The notes beneath the pieces were generated by a model, which was not told where the DNA came from, did no database searches, and saw nothing but the letters and a program-made list of their open reading frames with translations. The translations under genes were made by a program, and so were the position numbers. 64,000 nucleotides of DNA from Escherichia coli (GTDB taxonomy: Bacteria; Pseudomonadota; Gammaproteobacteria; Enterobacterales; Enterobacteriaceae): NCBI RefSeq assembly GCF_030384885.1, contig NZ_CP128613.1. One strand, written 5' to 3'. Shown here piece by piece: positions 11,701-21,640 of the stretch (the first letter of the stretch is position 1; each line of letters opens with the position of its first letter).

Positions 11701-11793
11701 CGTTTTGCTCGCAAACTCGTCACTTGAACAAAATTGCACGGACAGGGACTGTTAAAATGCCAAATTTCCTGGCATCATGGCAACCATCTGAAC

Positions 11794-11883
11794 GGAGAGA
11801 TGCCGGAGCGGCTGAACGGACCGGTCTCGAAAACCGGAGTAGGGGCAACTCTACCGGGGGTTCAAATCCCCCTCTCTCCGCCA
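11794..11883 (+). tRNA. serU: tRNA-Ser
   Basis: 90 nt GGAGAGATGCCGGAGCGGCTGAACGGACCGGTCTCGAAAACCGG...CTCTCCGCCA, long variable arm typical of tRNA-Ser. Confidence 0.9.
11870..11883. repeat. attL core: serU 3' end (CCCTCTCTCCGCCA)
   Basis: 14 bp identical to the copy at 34279-34292. Confidence 0.6.
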
Positions 11884-17454: not shown

Positions 17455-17934
17455 TTACAGAGATATTTTCCTGCGCTTGTGGCTTGATGGTTCAAACTCT
17501 GACGAGATACGAGATAGTTGCTCAAGACTCTGTTCAATTGAACGCTGGAACTCCATAGCGGCTTCTGTACGCTGTTTTATGACCAAGGCAACTATTTCTT
17601 CATCAGTCTTTTCTGAAATAGCCTTACGGTATAACACGCGTTCGTTAAATAAATCGAGATTACCAGTTGATCTCGCTGATGTGTTAGCTTTTGAACTGCT
17701 GATAGGATTTAACTCGTCAATAAAGTATTCAATAAGAGATCCTCTCTTTTTTTCAAGTCTGCGAAGTTCGGTATGTGCAGACTTAAATTTTTGAGCCTTA
17801 ACCAATGGAATGTCATCGGAACGCAGTTTGCGATATTCATTTCTGTATTCTTCTATAGAAATATGATTTTTTAGTTCTTTGACTGTATTTACGTATTCGA
17901 TTAAATCACTGTTGTCTGTTTTTACTTTTCTCAT
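17455..17934 (-). CDS. Hypothetical coiled-coil protein
   Basis: 159 aa ORF upstream of hfp on the same strand. Confidence 0.4.
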   Translation of the reverse strand: MRKVKTDNSDLIEYVNTVKELKNHISIEEYRNEYRKLRSDDIPLVKAQKFKSAHTELRRLEKKRGSLIEYFIDELNPISSSKANTSARSTGNLDLFNERVLYRKAISEKTDEEIVALVIKQRTEAAMEFQRSIEQSLEQLSRISSEFEPSSHKRRKISL

Positions 17935-17997
17935 AAGAATACCTCGTTAATAAATGATGGATATATTTATATTACGAGATATGGTGTTAGTGTCAAA

Positions 17998-18045
17998 TTA
18001 GCTCTTTAGCTCTTTAGCTCTTTAGCTCTTTAGCTCTTTAGCTCT
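17998..18045. repeat. Perfect octanucleotide tandem repeat (TTAGCTCT)x6
   Basis: Six exact copies counted directly, 64-111 bp upstream of the 17934 start codon. Confidence 0.95.
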
Positions 18046-18126
18046 GTTTCTCTCTTGGTAAGAAAATCCCTTTAGTGTAATAGGAGGTTATTACGGAGAT
18101 ATTTTTGCCTGTTTTTCCGCTGGTAA

Positions 18127-18684
18127 TTAATTTTTGTTATTCACTGTTTTCTTTTTGTCCTTCAAGTAATAAGTTTTCATGAAAGTTAAACGATCACCAT
18201 TAAACATATAGTCTGGATTAATAAAATAATAGTTCTGTATCATGGTCTCAGCAATAAATTTCTTGTCAGCAAGTTCTTTCATCCCTTTGAAATATGTCGT
18301 TCTTGATATTTTTACAATCTCTTGATCAACAATATCGAATGACATTAATATCGTATCTGTATCTTTATTGTCTCTAATAGCAAGATACAGTATCTTAAAT
18401 ACTTTCTTACCTGATGAGGATAAACCCTCAATAGCTGATACGCCATCCACATAAAGCTTCACGAACTGTGTCTTGTCTACTTCCATTGACTGAAAGAAAC
18501 CACCATGCCCAACCTGTTCTCCTGTATTTTCATTTACTACGGCTAAGCGGTCTTTTCCTGTTGTGATACGTCTGATACCTGTTTTTGTATGTATATTTGT
18601 ATCATTAAGGAATGGGTTTTTTACATGGCGAGGTAGACCTCTTCTTGATTTCTTTACTTCCGTTTGTATCTTATTTTCTATCAT
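18127..18684 (-). CDS. Hypothetical protein
   Basis: 185 aa ORF, basic N-terminus; no motif recognised. Confidence 0.4.
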   Translation of the reverse strand: MIENKIQTEVKKSRRGLPRHVKNPFLNDTNIHTKTGIRRITTGKDRLAVVNENTGEQVGHGGFFQSMEVDKTQFVKLYVDGVSAIEGLSSSGKKVFKILYLAIRDNKDTDTILMSFDIVDQEIVKISRTTYFKGMKELADKKFIAETMIQNYYFINPDYMFNGDRLTFMKTYYLKDKKKTVNNKN

Positions 18685-19096
18685 GGTACTTACTCCTTTA
18701 TTTTTTTAGTTATACATTTAAGTAAATACTATATTTTGCGTGCAAGTCAATACTTAAAGTTTATATTTTTTAAAATAACTAACACTTGATGTTTTTACGT
18801 ATAAAACTTGTAGTGCTACAGAATATATACAAATAACACTTTATTATTTTTATTTGAGAATAGTTATCAACTTAAGTACCGGGATTCGGGACTTTAACTC
18901 CCGAGAGTGCGTACTTTGTTTTAAGCTATAGCTGGCTTGAGAGCAGTTTTCTTCTTCATTATTCAAATAGCGAAGCTTTGGATGACATTTTAAAGAATAT
19001 AATATTGGAAATAGTTCTTCTTTTTAGTTGATTGGTGCCTTATCAAAATGGCACCAGTGGTGTTATCTGTGTTATTTTTCCTACTATGTTATTACA

Positions 19097-19276
19097 GCGA
19101 AGTGATTGTTGTATACAATCACGAACCGCTGCTACTATCGGGACTGCTTGATTAATTTTACTTTAACTTTATATGCGTCTACGACGCGATCTTTTTTGGA
19201 TAAATCCAATATTAACAGGGGCAAGCCCTGTTCAGCAGAGTGATTGTTCGCAACAATCACGAAGTGCTGCTATCAA
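19097..19276. promoter_or_regulatory. Pair of related ~40 bp elements, each containing a 21 bp palindrome (GTGATTGTTnnnAACAATCAC), with intervening hairpins
   Basis: Palindromes at 19102-19122 and 19240-19260 followed by the conserved tail GAA(C/G)(C/T)GCTGCTA; hairpin plus T-run 19171-19195; hairpin 19216-19230. Confidence 0.5.
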
Positions 19277-19602
19277 GGATATAGTTTTCCTATACGTTTA
19301 AGAGCAAATGCTATATGTCTAAAGGGAAAAACTATGTTTAAACATAGGATCTAAATTCAGCATCATGAGGAAAAGAGATCAAACAATGATCGAGTACTTT
19401 TCTTTTTATTTAAAAAACAGGAGATGAATAAAATAAAAATATCAGCGTCAGGGCGTAGCCGTGCGTAAGCACAGAGATAAAGATCTTTTCAATAAGAAGT
19501 TTAATAATCAGTAGTGAAATCATAAATAAAATAAAAATATATTTGATTTTTACGCCTGCGATAGAGTATTAAACAGTAATAAAATAATAAAAGGAAAATA
19601 TA

Positions 19603-19872
19603 ATGAACAATACCAAAATGATCACTCTCTTCCATCCACATGACAAAACACCATTTATAATCTGTATTGTAAACAAAGTAGAAGATACAGACCACGGATT
19701 GAAATTAACCCTTGAAAACGGCAACAATATTTGTGTCAATAATTATAGTCATTATCTGTTATCAGAGTCTGTAAGTCGTTGCGATAAACACAGGTTAAAA
19801 AATATTTATATTCGCTTGGTTTCAGAACTCACGCAGATGAGTGAAAAAACTATAAATTCGCAAATGTTATAA
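19603..19872 (+). CDS. Hypothetical protein
   Basis: 89 aa ORF after a long AT-rich non-coding region. Confidence 0.3.
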   Translation: MNNTKMITLFHPHDKTPFIICIVNKVEDTDHGLKLTLENGNNICVNNYSHYLLSESVSRCDKHRLKNIYIRLVSELTQMSEKTINSQML

Positions 19873-19950
19873 AATATCTATAAAGACATAATAAATATTT
19901 TTGATATTATGATTAGTTGCATGGTATTAAATAAAAACAGGAAAAATATC

Positions 19951-20355
19951 ATGCTAAAAATAAAAACAAAGATCTATATACCTACAACTTTAACAGGAAA
20001 CATGGATAAACACTATATCCCTGTTTTAGAGGATTTAAGAAAAGCGATATACAGCGACAGAATGTTATCAAGGCTTGCAGATAGCGGCAATATTGTTATC
20101 CATAGTTCAGTTGGGTATCCGGTTGCTAAATACAAAAATACGGGTATTAGCATAGGTATAGAACCATTGAATCCAATGATAAGACAAAATCTGACTCTTG
20201 GATATATTATGGTTGTCAGAAACGGAAAAGCATCACAGGAGATTAATGGTTTACTTAACAGGTCATTGCCAAAAGCAATAAGCACTTTTAAGGATCACAT
20301 CAATGAATATGAAGCAGTAAAAAGTAAAATGCGACAACAAACTATGATCTGGTAA
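19951..20355 (+). CDS. Hypothetical protein
   Basis: ATG 19951 preceded by agga RBS; 134 aa. Confidence 0.35.
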   Translation: MLKIKTKIYIPTTLTGNMDKHYIPVLEDLRKAIYSDRMLSRLADSGNIVIHSSVGYPVAKYKNTGISIGIEPLNPMIRQNLTLGYIMVVRNGKASQEINGLLNRSLPKAISTFKDHINEYEAVKSKMRQQTMIW

Positions 20356-20469
20356 AATATTTAGTCTGATAACTACAGGAGAAGGATGAGCAATGGAAGG
20401 TAAGTTAATTTTTGTTCCGATGCAATACTACGGTTTCAATCCAATTACGATGAAACCGCTGCCGTTCCA

Positions 20470-21432
20470 TTGCTATCCATCCAGAACGTCATAGCCAATA
20501 CCGATCCGTTCTTTCTTCTCCGGTTCTTCCACCATACCGTTCTGATTGAAGAAGGAACAACGCTGGCAAGTATCTTTCTGGCAATAGAACCATGGAAGGC
20601 TTTGTTAGCAGCTTATCTGGACAGAGATGTTGGTGCTTATATAGATGAGGTAAGAAAACCGTCCGGGCCAACGGCATGGGATATTGAATGGATCGGAATT
20701 GACCGTCGAAGTTCGGTTTATCGCGCTTACAAGCGTCAGGATATGGAAGAAGGGGAGGATTTTTCGACCTATTTTAATCGCGAGCGCTTCCCGACTGATG
20801 AGCTTGACATAGAAAGTAGCTGTGATGCTTCCGGCTTTATCAAAGGAGATAAAGAACGCTGGAGTATCAGCGGCGATATTCAACAAATTAAAAATCTTCC
20901 TGTAATCCTCTATAGCAAACAGACATTAATGACTTCACCGAAAGACGGTTTGCTGAAGAAAAACGTATCGGGTGTGAAGAGTTCCAAGCACAGTTGCTTT
21001 GTTTATGGCGATACCTCGTTTTCTTTTAGAGAGGTTATGGAAGCCATCTTCATTAGTAGGCTGTTCTTCTATGCACCAAAAGACGCAGCCAGCAGCCTTG
21101 ATGAGCTGAAAGCGAGTCTGGCTGAACTGGAAGAAGAACGTGCTGAAAGCACAAATACGGAGTCGATCGGCAATGAAACAGGTGAAGAACCTACCATCGT
21201 CGTAGCCGACGGTGCTTTTGATTCGCTCGCTGCTCACATGGAGTCTGAAAAGCGGAGTGGCAATCCATTAAGAAGTTGTGCCAGCAGGAAGGAGGGCTGC
21301 CCATACGTATTGGCAACATCAAAATGGCTGAGCCTCCAGCGTTATAGCTATTTTAAGAAAAGAAATGATGTAAATATGCATCTGGTTTTTCTTTATAATG
21401 TAAGGATGTCCGATGAAACATCAGCATCGTGA
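20470..21432 (+). CDS. Hypothetical protein (non-ATG start, higher GC than neighbours)
   Basis: 320 aa ORF beginning at TTG; acidic helical segment (DELKASLAELEEERAE); start uncertain. Confidence 0.3.
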   Translation: MLSIQNVIANTDPFFLLRFFHHTVLIEEGTTLASIFLAIEPWKALLAAYLDRDVGAYIDEVRKPSGPTAWDIEWIGIDRRSSVYRAYKRQDMEEGEDFSTYFNRERFPTDELDIESSCDASGFIKGDKERWSISGDIQQIKNLPVILYSKQTLMTSPKDGLLKKNVSGVKSSKHSCFVYGDTSFSFREVMEAIFISRLFFYAPKDAASSLDELKASLAELEEERAESTNTESIGNETGEEPTIVVADGAFDSLAAHMESEKRSGNPLRSCASRKEGCPYVLATSKWLSLQRYSYFKKRNDVNMHLVFLYNVRMSDETSAS

Positions 21433-21640
21433 ATGTTATCTGGTTAATAATTTTCTTATGTAATATTATCTATGCCATCTGGCTATGTTTTCAATTGTTT
21501 TAGTTCTCGACAACTGTTTTTATATCCAGTATGATTTTACTCGTATCCGGCAGAATATTTTTAGATGCTGTTTCATGAACTCCGGTTGAAAGGTTTATTC
21601 TCTACTTTTGGGAATAATAGTTAAAATGGAGATAAGTGTA

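Follow-up and report, generated by a model that had tools for sequence, protein, structure and literature searches.

Composite-hairpin units in the replication module of a ROD21-like mobilizable island as candidate signals for single-strand DNA processing

The DNA analysed here (the window, 64 kb of Escherichia coli sequence) contains an island in which tRNA-Ser is accompanied by genes for DUF6387, AlpA, H-NS, a replication protein (Rep), MobQ, TraD, PilV and a P4-type integrase. This gene set fits the description of the EARL family (PMC6035254), and the assignment of the island to the ROD21-like (EARL) integrative mobilizable islands at tRNA-Ser, as the E. coli serU island, is strongly supported. 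EARL islands occupy a tRNA gene, with a P4-type integrase gene at one end and an AlpA-type directionality factor and a conserved gene at the other (PMC6035254, PMC10763509). Likewise, in the window tRNA-Ser(cga) (11794-11883) is adjoined by DUF6387 and AlpA homologues, and the integrase is encoded at 32897-34114. The mobilization genes typical of the family are represented by mobQ and by PilV-like and pilin ORFs; a traD-like sequence is present in the window but is interrupted. Among its known members are ROD21 of Salmonella Enteritidis, ICEKp258.2 from the epidemic Klebsiella ST258 and, in uropathogenic E. coli, the serU island that bears TcpC. EARL islands move between species.

The 918 bp that separate rep from the small conserved ORF orf89 appear, on strong evidence, to be the non-coding half of a plasmid-type replication module. 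All ORFs inside this stretch are of 48 aa or less, and in the listed hits, drawn from 343 E. coli genomes that match it over its full length, RefSeq annotates no feature in it, which upholds its description as gene-free in an earlier sequence-only reading of this DNA. Promoter-like sites are not enriched in the region (four found, 5.5 expected). Its features and those of the neighbouring genes are listed in Table 1.

Table 1. Features of the gene-free region and of neighbouring island genes (window coordinates)
Feature	Position	Strand	Basis
rep, 185 aa, RepL/pHW126-family winged-helix, group II-b	18127..18684	-	Pfam RepL E = 3.2e-5
Best sigma-70-like rep promoter candidate, TTGATA-16-AATAAT	18843..18870	-	10/12 hexamer matches; consensus match only
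Hairpin TCGGGA-CTTTAAC-TCCCGA	18886..18904	.	within separately conserved segment 18846-18975
Hairpin GGTGCC-N10-GGCACC, upstream of first unit	19033..19056	.	minimum-energy DNA fold
Promoter-like hexamers ATTACA-17-TACAAT, overlapping copy 1	19091..19119	+	9/12 matches
Hairpin unit copy 1, A type	19095..19134	+	repeat, palindrome, fold
hpT, hairpin GCGTC-TAC-GACGC + T-run, first element of B-type unit	19174..19198	+	terminator-like
GGATAAATCC box	19198..19207	.	near-invariant in B-type units
Hairpin hp1, AACAGGG-GCAAG-CCCTGTT	19214..19232	+	fold
Hairpin unit copy 2, B type	19233..19272	+	repeat, palindrome, fold (B-type unit segment 19165-19310, z = -5.0)
Conserved 3' block of distal B units, TATAG-TTTTC-CTATA-CG-TTTAAGAGC	19280..19305	.	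conservation
orf89, small conserved ORF 3' of distal hairpin cluster	19603..19872	+	conserved position
mobQ relaxase gene	26888..28369	-	NCBIfam MobQ 249 bits (cut-off 200), E = 2.5e-74
Universal hairpin array upstream of mobQ, probable cognate oriT	28404..28518	+	conserved in 42/43 aligned loci

The region contains two 40-nt direct repeats, 138 nt apart and 80% identical, which confirms the pair of related palindromic elements seen earlier. The palindrome of copy 1 (19102-19122, GTGATTGTTGTATACAATCAC) has arms of 8 bp around a 5-nt centre and that of copy 2 (19240-19260, GTGATTGTTCGCAACAATCAC) arms of 9 bp and a 3-nt loop. Matches to the 21-bp palindrome pattern number two in the whole 64-kb window, against 0.04 expected, and both are the two repeats; the suggested search for this palindrome elsewhere thus found no more in the window and many in related islands. 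Around each palindrome lies an outer stem of 5 bp, formed by CAGCG/CGCTG in copy 1 (19095-19099/19127-19131) and CAGCA/TGCTG in copy 2 (19233-19237/19265-19269, with the linker GAAG), and palindrome and outer stem together form a composite hairpin with an internal loop of 2 x 4 nt. These outer stems had been overlooked in the earlier reading. The tails end in GCTGC (19128-19132 and 19266-19270), each followed by TA. As for the conserved tail claimed for the two elements, GCTGC is near-invariant across hundreds of homologous copies, but the tail pattern CACGAANNGCTGCTA alone is found twice in the window against 1.33 expected and is therefore not rarer than chance.

Folding of positions 19020-19345 exceeds that of shuffled sequence on both strands (z = -5.2 on the plus and -4.9 on the minus strand). 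The stem-loops at 19033-19056 and 19214-19232, both of them proposed in the earlier reading, are present in the minimum-energy DNA fold. The former keeps its GTGCC...GGCAC in several island subfamilies; in the latter, hp1, the stem is formed instead by GGAG/CTCC in Yersinia and Serratia and is re-registered or extended in other variants. The hairpin with a T-run was also recovered: there are two terminator-like sites (0.4 expected), one of which is the hairpin 19174-19188 followed by ATCTTTTTTG. This hpT element is conserved, and one of its pairs covaries between T-A and G-C (41 versus 73 of 157 unique units). A block of the 19280-19305 type follows most distal B units, in all genera; on the minus strand of this segment we noticed a nut-like boxA/boxB motif. 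The minus strand at 19195-19203 reads TTATCCAAA, which is DnaA-box-like with one mismatch, but was rejected as a DnaA box: such matches number 19 in the window, with 17.8 expected, and conservation reaches beyond the box. On the rep side, the -35 hexamer of the rep promoter candidate overlaps one copy of the repeat TAGTTATCAACTTAAGTA, and the segment 18846-18975 is found alone in other E. coli genomes (hits H59 and H60, query 162-291). In related loci, rep-side clusters are preceded by A-type units homologous to copy 1, and the T by which TACAAT arises is a typical feature of this type. At the other end, members of the orf89/orf111 family lie 3' of the hairpin cluster in most loci; family searches with orf89 gave no match.

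The two 40-bp elements are copies of a family-wide composite hairpin, which we call the HP unit. We counted 351 copies at 177 loci in Enterobacterales, in homologous islands that range from E. coli to Yersinia, Serratia, Pectobacterium and Dickeya; the question of conservation in such islands, raised by the earlier reading, is thereby answered positively, and the view that the elements are conserved cis-acting elements and not chance palindromes is supported. In the unit, an outer stem of 5 bp (CAGCR/YGCTG) and an asymmetric internal loop enclose the invariant inner palindrome GTGATTGT-N5-ACAATCAC, and the end is GCTGC; the N5 centre is fixed in 76/79 units. Because this palindrome is unchanged beside rep groups that share ~14% identity and have differing iterons, it would be recognised by a conserved backbone or host factor. 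Selection acts on base pairing, with 93% of cells pairing and eight pairs changed on both sides, compared with 2.3 +/- 1.2 in shuffles (0/500 shuffles reach 8). Symmetric double changes occur at stem positions 4, 7 and 8 of mobQ-proximal copies, their sister distal copies being canonical, and stem mismatches lack a strand bias of the G.U type (28 versus 27, innermost pair excluded). The copy number ranges from one to five (two in the window) and the spacings are 138-143, 164, ~300, ~325 and ~495 nt, in which a looped-operator test detected no helical phasing.

Several natural junctions coincide with GCTGC, namely a duplication (copy 2 of locus L002), a deletion (L022/L149) and the end of homology in hit H58 (window 19271), whereas in a hybrid unit at 17223 of L039 the junction precedes the tail; the classifier used to type hybrid units for recombination junctions was too noisy, and these cases are anecdotal only. 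BLAST searches of 72,556 plasmids and 50,697 phages, with the region and with a 64-nt unit as queries, matched only records that carry the island itself, and no phage record contained the sequence; the unit therefore mimics no known plasmid oriT and is no phage element. Metagenome hits that might have been free small plasmids with the unit proved to be short contigs, which are island fragments and not circles. In the EARL-island literature searched we found no description of an oriT, of iterons or of these hairpins, and the HP unit is apparently undescribed.

The orientation of the units follows the transfer module. Wherever units and mobQ occur at one locus (132 units), the polarity is without exception opposite the mobQ coding strand, and none of the 177 loci has units on both strands; rep, on the other hand, lies 5' of the cluster and divergent in 147 cases and 3' and co-directional in 36. 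The polarity of the HP unit is thus locked to the transfer module and not to rep. All 55 multi-copy clusters adjoin a rep gene, while single units occur near mobQ without one. This second location, 680-740 bp upstream of mobQ in the mobQ-traD intergenic region, is occupied in about half of the GTDB islands, and the unit stays put even where traD is displaced by 1-5 kb. The window has no copy in its mobQ-traD spacer. In mobQ-proximal units conservation ends abruptly after GCTGC. Much nearer to mobQ lies the universal array, which comprises a hairpin (28404-28423) and a composite hairpin with an outer stem (28483-28487/28509-28513), an inner repeat (28488-28494/28498-28504), the bulge ATAG and then the core GTGGGCATTG. 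It is unique in the window, and its inner repeat shows compensatory changes. The HP unit (CAGCA - GA - inner repeat - GAAG - TGCTG - C) mirrors the layout of this universal site (CCCAC - inner repeat - ATAG - GTGGG - C).

The Rep encoded next to the units is of the homologue class of ROD21 SEN1990, and its homologues are named 'replication/maintenance protein RepL' in RefSeq. Profile-profile comparison (hhalign) with island group I and plasmid Reps gave E = 4.3e-4 and a probability of 34%. Related island Reps are 27-49% identical to plasmid Reps of the pHW126 family, and one of group I shares 49% identity over 123 aa with the Rep of a 2.8-kb Klebsiella plasmid (E = 4e-42). The island Rep groups have ~14% mutual identity, differing recognition helices and iterons of their own. 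Clear tandem palindromic iterons were found between rep and the hairpins in five other rep types of related islands, in the order HP units, 145-460 nt, four iterons, rep; modules of the pHW126 family have the order ssi-like palindrome, conserved region, four iterons, rep (PMC6854812; bioRxiv 10.1101/2022.12.05.519187). The islands resemble pHW126, pIGRK and pIGMS31 in their homologous winged-helix Rep, in the tandem array of four palindromic iterons, each of ~20 bp, that lies upstream of rep (seen in related islands, not in the window) and in a long AT-rich non-coding control region with an extra palindromic element beyond the iterons. In contrast to these 2-3 kb plasmids, the module here belongs to an integrated chromosomal island, the window Rep is no more than distantly related (Pfam RepL 3e-5; hhalign 4e-4) and lacks tandem iterons, and the HP units have no sequence in common with the ssi-like palindrome or the conserved region. 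Between rep and the units of the window no periodic repeat was detected (the best, with a 24-nt period and 47% identity, equals background). A CCYTGATTTTAYTGG motif that lies beside the iterons of some islands in inverted orientation resembles the plasmid conserved region CCCTTGATATTACT, but no such motif was seen in the window; the 5' flank of the A unit (CTTGATG..TTAT) was rejected as its counterpart, being too short and on the wrong strand relative to rep.

Judged from these sequence comparisons, there is evidence that the 'RepL' genes of the islands are homologous to initiators of pHW126-type plasmids and come with matching iterons, in which case the islands would carry complete, exchangeable replicons. 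A precedent is SGI1, likewise a mobilizable island with its own rep and origin beside mobilization functions, in which replication may be silent without a helper (PMC7433901). Its Rep family and origin differ, and ROD21 does not replicate autonomously under laboratory conditions. ROD21 is present in one copy per chromosome, deletion of its Rep had no effect, and its RepL gene was judged irrelevant to replication; its oriT was described as 'yet unidentified' (PMC10655114).

We consider it probable that the HP units are single-strand DNA processing signals of the transfer or replication machinery, rather than RNAs or plain operators. The specific reading that we favour over the others, though only tentatively, is that they could be accessory hairpin-nick (oriT-like) sites of the MOBQ type on the transferred (plus) strand. 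Once the transferred strand is unwound, the HP hairpin would form and be bound by the island HUH relaxase MobQ, which would cut and rejoin it just after GCTGC, as it presumably does at the universal hairpin upstream of mobQ. The units would then offer additional start and stop points for strand transfer and allow site-specific joining at GCTGC, and such joining would account for the variation in copy number (1-5), for hybrid units and for the exchange of rep/iteron cassettes beside an unchanging hairpin.

Both the universal site and the HP unit have the repeat 5' of the core, on one strand; in copy 2 the palindrome is followed by GAAGTGCTGC, and an inverted repeat directly 5' of the core is common to all 351 units. 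The MOBQ nic consensus is NWACCNNTAAGTGCGCCCTYNN, given also as TAAGTGCGCCCT (PMC3832669). It is matched at 9/12 positions by the universal-site core TAAGTGGGCATT and equally by the commonest B-unit tail TAAGTGCTGCTT; the window copies score below this tail (GAAGTGCTGCTA 8/12, GAACCGCTGCTA lower still), and the TAAGTG similarity is absent from window copy 1 (GAACCGCTGC) and from many mobQ-proximal copies (CTCGCGCTGC). The units share with MOBQ oriTs (RSF1010/R1162 and the NES type of pSK41/pLW1043) an inverted repeat directly 5' of the core on the nicked strand, a MobQ relaxase on the same element and conservation that ends at the putative cut; the resemblance of the core to the consensus is partial and varies between copies. 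Unlike these oriTs, they are multi-copy, have GCTGC and not GCGCC in the core, pair the core with its 5' flank in the 5-bp outer stem, and may lie kilobases from the relaxase gene (7.6 kb from mobQ in the window, although many other islands have an extra copy beside it). More than one oriT-like site per mobile element is also on record for ICEclc (oriT1/oriT2) and R6K (cited in bioRxiv 10.64898/2026.01.13.699239); the HP candidates differ in being tandem, co-oriented and clustered at the replication module. Against the oriT-like interpretation, the universal array is a better-placed oriT candidate that already adjoins mobQ, and co-oriented nick sites on one circle should lead to premature termination and loss of cargo. 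It is odd, too, for a single relaxase that the inner repeat is variable in the universal site and invariant in HP units. The constant company of rep (55/55 clusters) fits a role in replication at least as well, the L039 hybrid junction lies before the tail, and the stem mismatches are without strand bias.

A variant of this interpretation, by analogy with the guide-sequence recognition of the IS608 TnpA transposase, would make the HP unit and the mobQ-proximal site two sequence-unrelated substrates of one HUH relaxase, guided intramolecularly. Base pairing of the 5 nt before the hairpin with the 5 nt destined for cleavage (CAGCA with TGCTG in the HP unit, CCCAC with GTGGG at the mobQ-proximal site) would take the place of a reading of the core sequence. 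We regard this as very doubtful; were it true, oriT specificity would be re-programmable and the hairpins would be docking sites for the capture and exchange of rep/iteron cassettes.

The main rival explanation, possible though on balance unlikely, is that the hairpins are single-strand initiation signals of the ssi/sso type on the transferred or displaced plus strand, which would recruit primase, primosome or RNA polymerase so that complementary-strand synthesis starts after conjugative entry and during rep-driven replication. The layout of the pHW126 family (ssi-like palindrome, iterons, rep) parallels that of the islands, and a priming signal would be useful beside a replication origin and near a transfer origin, the only two contexts in which units were found. 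Polarity locked to the transfer strand, several hairpins conserved as structures and invariance across rep types and genera, for which a conserved host factor would account, agree with such a role. So does the resemblance to the complementary-strand origin of phage G4, where the CTG at which the primer starts (3996-3998) comes after three hairpins: both G4-type origins or plasmid ssi and the HP units have ~100 nt of short one-strand hairpins with CTG 3' of them and are strand-specific, and the G4 origin and the B unit fold with a similar energy excess (z = -4.7 and -5.0, respectively). However, there is no sequence similarity to the G4 origin (3884-4019) or to the ssi-like palindromes of pIGRK, pIGMS31 and pHW126, and the predicted fold pairs the tail CTG within the outer stem, while that of G4 is single-stranded. 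Priming also leaves the GCTGC junctions and the architectural match to the mobQ-proximal site unexplained, and the lack of strand bias in stem mismatches speaks against it. A role as the core (nick or melting site) of a Rep-dependent origin, with type-specific iterons merely binding Rep, appears very unlikely. The units would then be counterparts of the family-wide conserved region of pHW126-like plasmids, as the multi-copy clusters beside rep would suggest. In rolling-circle plasmid families the nick region is conserved and the binding region divergent. Reps of the pHW126 family nick DNA, and tandem origins delete the intervening DNA (PMC2831885; pIGMS31 preprint), a deletion that would also yield junctions and changes in copy number. 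Yet Reps of ~14% identity would need one common cut sequence, the orientation and distance of the units to rep and iterons are unfixed (either side, 145 to ~460 nt), and single units occur in the mobQ oriT region without rep. Nor do the single copy of ROD21 per chromosome and the lack of effect of its Rep deletion favour this role; there is no convincing match to the plasmid conserved region, for which the CCYTGATTTTAYTGG motif, separate from the HP units, is the better candidate.

The sequence-only reading had itself offered two explanations, paired operators for a dimeric regulator or RNA structures such as the immunity RNA targets of P4-type satellites. Double-stranded operators or 'inverted iterons' for a dimeric protein (the adjacent Rep, above all that of the window group II type, some other protein of the island or an activator from a helper plasmid) would control the promoters of rep and orf89, and of traD. 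The fixed N5 centre and invariant half-sites of the 21-bp palindrome do fit a dimer, and Reps of the pHW126 family bind, as dimers, to palindromic iterons and to inverted-repeat operators. The group II iterons of Yersinia (CAATCACGAAGAAAA) have 11 nt in common with the 3' arm and tail of the unit, the window rep type lacks iterons of its own, copy 1 contains the -10-like TACAAT and some mobQ-proximal copies abut TTGACA. But the palindrome is identical beside Reps with unrelated recognition helices and does not co-vary with Rep type, whereas the separate iterons do, and polarity follows mobQ rather than the flanking genes. The outer-stem spacing is asymmetric (3 versus 5 nt), hpT and hp1 are conserved by structure (compensatory changes) and not by sequence, and neither helical phasing of the units nor an excess of promoter-like sites was observed. 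Deletion of the ROD21 Rep homologue changed only oafB and no neighbouring transcript (PMC10655114). The simple paired-operator reading is therefore disfavoured, and operators of any such kind are quite unlikely. A structured RNA, either a short transcript from the promoter-like site of copy 1 to the terminator-like hairpin ~70 nt downstream or a repeated leader or antitermination structure, seems extremely unlikely, even though that hairpin is conserved with covariation, the nut-like motif lies on the minus strand at 19280-19305 and pHW126-type origins hold Rep-activated promoters without a downstream gene. The proposed Rfam check, run on 17500-20500 on both strands at a permissive threshold, returned noise, with a best E of 1.6, far below gathering scores; the two strands fold equally well without G.U bias, the 45 nt from putative start to terminator are poorly conserved between subfamilies, and RNA-seq found low transcription of the homologous ROD21 region (PMC10655114). 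The polarity tied to mobQ would be left unexplained, and the P4 comparison found no support, the integrase type being the only P4-like feature of the island.

For EARL islands, these comparisons provide three testable targets: the universally conserved MOBQ-like hairpin beside mobQ as the probable oriT, the 'RepL' genes as putative pHW126-type initiator homologues with matching iterons, and the multi-copy hairpin unit as a link between the replication module and the transfer module. Should the units be sites of relaxase action or of priming, they would bear on the establishment of islands in new hosts and on module swapping, both of which matter for how virulence and phage-defence cargo spreads. 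The island in the window is chromosomal and 22 kb in size, and its cargo includes Thoeris and a TIR protein.

The island that begins at tRNA-Ser(cga) is the serU island of extraintestinal E. coli, a member of the Enterobacteriaceae-associated ROD21-like (EARL) family of mobilizable islands (PMC6035254, PMC5521745, PMC10763509). Its gene products include DUF6387 and DUF4756 proteins, AlpA, an H-NS paralogue, a pilin and PilV. TraD (100-103 aa) is intact in related islands (L008, 18498-18809; L054, 10413-10718), whereas the copy in the window is broken. A type I Thoeris pair (21608-23705) forms cargo between the hairpin cluster and mobQ, and the TIR-domain protein encoded further right is probably the protein of TcpC type that the serU island is noted for.

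Features of the island in the window and iterons (tandem repeats beside rep) of related island loci
Feature	Position	Strand	Remarks
tRNA-Ser(cga)	11794-11883		island start
'RepL' protein gene (rep)	18127-18684	-
Hairpin	18886-18904		TCGGGA-CTTTAAC-TCCCGA; inside segment 18846-18975
Palindrome of copy 1	19102-19122		21 bp, GTGATTGTTGTATACAATCAC
Palindrome of copy 2	19240-19260		21 bp, GTGATTGTTCGCAACAATCAC
ThsA, type I Thoeris	21608-23077	+	PADLOC, 672 bits
ThsB, type I Thoeris	23094-23705	+	PADLOC, 285 bits
MobQ relaxase gene	26888-28369	-	249 bits (cut-off 200)
Hairpin array upstream of mobQ	28404-28518	+	AGTTTTTC-GTAA-GAAAAACT, GCCTGCGGCAGC, composite hairpin ending GTATAGGTGGGCATTG
traD-like frame	29014-29320	+	interrupted: stop after about 42 codons, then other frame
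TIR-domain protein	31967-32797	-	PADLOC PDC-S35, 227 bits; weak Cap12-like NADase match
P4-type integrase	32897-34114		near island end
Iteron, ROD21/E2348-69 Rep type			CTATGTTCGAACATAG
Iteron, Klebsiella/Serratia Rep type			GTTTCC-N5-GGAAAC
Iteron, Yersinia Rep type			CAATCACGAAGAAAAATCTA
Iteron, Buttiauxella Rep type			GGAC...GTCC
Iteron, Rep paralogue downstream of hairpins			CTGACT-N5-AGTCAG
Iteron sites in related islands	L005 4196-4259; L031 18331-18417; L008 11831-11912; L009 11752-11806; L004 about 6730-6815

Direct reading of the region between rep and orf89 (18685-19602) bore out its description in the sequence-only reading, including the lack of genes: open reading frames do not exceed 48 aa, and the RefSeq matches listed, of 343 E. 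coli genomes with a full-length match, have no annotated feature there. Two 40-nt direct repeats (19095-19134 and 19233-19272; 80% identity, spacing 138 nt) each contain a 21-bp palindrome, whose pattern occurs at these two sites only in 64 kb, against 0.04 expected; the tail pattern taken alone has no significance within the window. The consensus scan and the DNA fold recovered the hairpin with T-run (19174-19198) and two stem-loops (19033-19056 and 19214-19232), and the folding z for 19020-19345 is -5.2 (+ strand) and -4.9 (- strand). Absent from that reading was a 5-bp outer stem that encloses each palindrome (CAGCG/CGCTG in copy 1, CAGCA/TGCTG in copy 2) and makes it a composite hairpin with an internal loop of 2 x 4 nt.

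This hairpin unit (HP unit) belongs to a family conserved in homologous islands, as the sequence-only reading had proposed to check. We collected 351 oriented units from 177 loci in E. coli genomes, 40 GTDB species loci retrieved by means of a MobQ alignment, and 120 metagenome and 20 IMG/VR stretches. Their core is CAGC-N3-GTGATTGT-N5-ACAATCAC-N5-GCTGC, with a palindrome centre that is free in sequence and 5 nt long in 76 of the 79 units of the first set. Pairing is kept (93% of cells pair), and eight pairs are changed on both sides, compared with 2.3 +/- 1.2 in shuffles (reached in 0/500). The rep-side units are of an A type, like copy 1 in the window, and a B type, like copy 2, the latter preceded by a hairpin with T-run (hpT), the box GGATAAATCC and a second hairpin (hp1). 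In hpT, one pair covaries from T-A to G-C (41 versus 73 of 157 unique units), and hp1 has GGAG/CTCC instead in Yersinia and Serratia. Most distal B units are followed 3' by a TTTAAGAGC block.

By sequence comparison, the left-hand gene is a homologue of plasmid replication initiators. Its product matches Pfam RepL at 3.2e-5, and a related island Rep matches phage O-like initiator families at 4.4e-8. With tblastn, the latter Rep also finds Rep genes (27-44% identity) of 2.3-3.1 kb plasmids in Klebsiella, Enterobacter, E. coli and Rahnella, including pIGRK, pIGMS31 and pHW126; the ROD21-type Rep is 49% identical to one such small-plasmid Rep over 123 aa (E = 4e-42). Island Reps fall into very divergent groups (about 14% identity between window and ROD21 types), weakly linked by profile-profile comparison (E = 4.3e-4). 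The pHW126-like module has the order ssi-like palindrome, conserved region, four iterons of about 20 bp, operators and rep; its Reps are dimeric winged-helix proteins with nicking activity, and between two tandem origins the intervening DNA is deleted (PMC6854812, PMC2831885, bioRxiv 10.1101/2022.12.05.519187). In ROD21, a long non-coding region of low transcription lies upstream of SEN1990, the homologue of the window Rep; it was proposed that this region 'could be the yet unidentified transfer origin', and deletion of SEN1990 left island copy number and neighbouring transcripts unaltered (PMC10655114).

In related islands, the interval between rep and the hairpins holds three or four tandem palindromic repeats with a period of 20-23 bp that differ with Rep type. 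Iterons of pHW126-like plasmids are palindromic too, and those of each island Rep type resemble them in being tandem and palindromic. The region therefore belongs to an integrated replication module of pHW126-like kind and is its non-coding half; the type-specific Rep-binding sites would be the iterons and not the palindromes of the HP units. For the window Rep type (also in L001, L006, L024 and L026), no periodic repeat rose above background. Two loci (L006, 4467-6814; L026, 13160-15884) have one hairpin cluster between two different rep genes, the window-type side without iterons and the paralogue side with CTGACT-N5-AGTCAG iterons. In L009 (Yersinia pseudotuberculosis), the iterons at 11752-11806 have 11 nt (CAATCACGAAG) in common with the HP 3' arm and tail, a possible link of group II Reps to the palindrome.

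Where a cluster has 1.6 kb or more of flank to either side, all 55 multi-copy HP clusters adjoin rep, and single units lie beside rep (11), beside mobQ (9) or as orphans (2). About half of the GTDB islands have one unit in the spacer between mobQ and traD, 680-740 bp upstream of the former, at a position unchanged where traD sits 1-5 kb further away; this copy is absent from the window. Units never occupy both strands of one locus, and where mobQ is present in the locus they are without exception (132 of 132) opposite to its coding strand. A divergent rep lies 5' of the cluster in 147 cases and a co-directional rep 3' of it in 36; thus, HP polarity is locked to the transfer module and not to the replication gene. 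Beside Reps with differing recognition helices and iterons the palindrome stays invariant, which, together with this polarity, argues against a Rep-specific operator or origin core. These observations point to recognition on one defined strand by a conserved backbone factor (MobQ) or a host factor.

In 42 of 43 aligned loci a second hairpin array is kept 120-190 bp upstream of mobQ, at the position where Ti-type and MOBQ systems have oriT. Its inner repeat has compensatory variants (ACTGC-GTA-GCAGT, GCTCA-CGAAG-TGAGT, ACTC-GAAG-AGT) and is followed 3' by the invariant core GTATA(A/G)GTGGGCATTG; this stretch is at 28488-28518 and is unique in the window. The core agrees at 9/12 positions with the MOBQ consensus NWACCNNTAAGTGCGCCCTYNN (PMC3832669). 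The array is probably the cognate oriT of this family of islands, that of ROD21 having been given as yet to be identified (PMC10655114); hence the + strand would be the transferred strand. In the predicted folds, the mobQ-proximal site and the HP unit show the same composite design: an outer stem (CCCAC/GTGGG and CAGCA/TGCTG, respectively) around an inner repeat, a bulge of 4 nt on the 3' side (ATAG and GAAG, respectively), and a C after the stem. In addition, the commonest B-unit tail, TAAGTGCTGCTT, likewise matches the MOBQ consensus at 9/12.

We consider it likely that the HP units are DNA-level, strand-specific processing signals of the transfer or replication machinery, and not RNAs or ordinary operators. 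On the best-supported reading, which is more tentative, they may be accessory oriT-like hairpin-nick sites of MOBQ type on the transferred strand, which MobQ would bind, cut and rejoin after GCTGC, with copy-number change, hybrid units and rep-cassette exchange as by-products. Conservation of mobQ-proximal units stops directly after GCTGC, and junctions occur there: copy 2 of L002 is of B type on its left and, beyond GAAGTGCTGC, has the right flank of an A unit (duplication of 138 bp), L022 and L149 pass from an A-type left part through TAAGCGCTGC to the right flank of a B unit (a deletion), and homology with match H58 ends at 19271. The exception is a hybrid in L039 (17223) with its junction before the tail. 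Against nicking stand the distance of the window copies from mobQ, the presence of an oriT candidate in a better position, the burden that multiple nick sites of one orientation would place on a circle, the invariant HP repeat as opposed to the variable repeat of the mobQ site, a core that is imperfect and is missing in copy 1 and many proximal copies, and the constant association with rep.

The main rival, that the units are single-strand initiation signals, is less likely: it fits the place that an ssi-like element has in the homologous modules of plasmids, both contexts found (rep and mobQ) and the layout of the phage G4 origin, with three hairpins before the CTG primer start (3996-3998), but there is no sequence similarity whatever and the CTG of the tail is predicted to be paired. 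Operator or inverted-iteron sites are unlikely; the conserved cis elements of the earlier operator proposal stand, and the operator itself is disfavoured by the mobQ-locked polarity and the invariance across Rep types, which also bear on a Rep-dependent origin core, unlikelier still. A structured RNA is very improbable; HP stems had no strand bias of G.T versus A.C mismatches. Each kind of element concerned here is already known (oriT, ssi and iterons, and also island replicons, of which SGI1 has one); new is their arrangement, a multi-copy unit with polarity tied to the transfer module beside exchangeable replicons. The full-text literature searched contained no description of HP units, EARL-island iterons or SEN1990-pHW126 initiator homology. 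Transfer and establishment of EARL islands thereby become directly testable by experiment.

Of 5,426 complete E. coli genomes, 685 contain parts of the region, distributed as a mosaic: some have query positions 405-587 alone, exactly both repeats, and others the left or right part alone. The region is a mosaic whose modules are exchangeable independently of one another. Segment 18846-18975 also occurs alone in other E. coli genomes (matches spanning query positions 162-291 only). A direct repeat of 19 nt that is rich in AT, ATRAATAAAATAAAAATAT (19424-19442 and 19522-19540, 98 nt apart), is situated between the hairpins and orf89 and could be an unwinding element or promoter region. The - strand from 19305 to 19280, GCTCTTAAA-CG-TATAG-GAAAA-CTATA, resembles a lambda nut site directed at rep, with a boxB-like 5-bp stem and GAAAA loop and with GCTCTTAAA, which we take to be boxA as in nutL. 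The closest E. coli match, MS1170, carries a yersiniabactin island at the tRNA-Asn site, whereas the window is without it; left of this tRNA gene, 1208-9811 encodes an intimin/invasin-like protein of 1347 aa (- strand), a HypF-like carbamoyltransferase (788 bits) and an MFS transporter.
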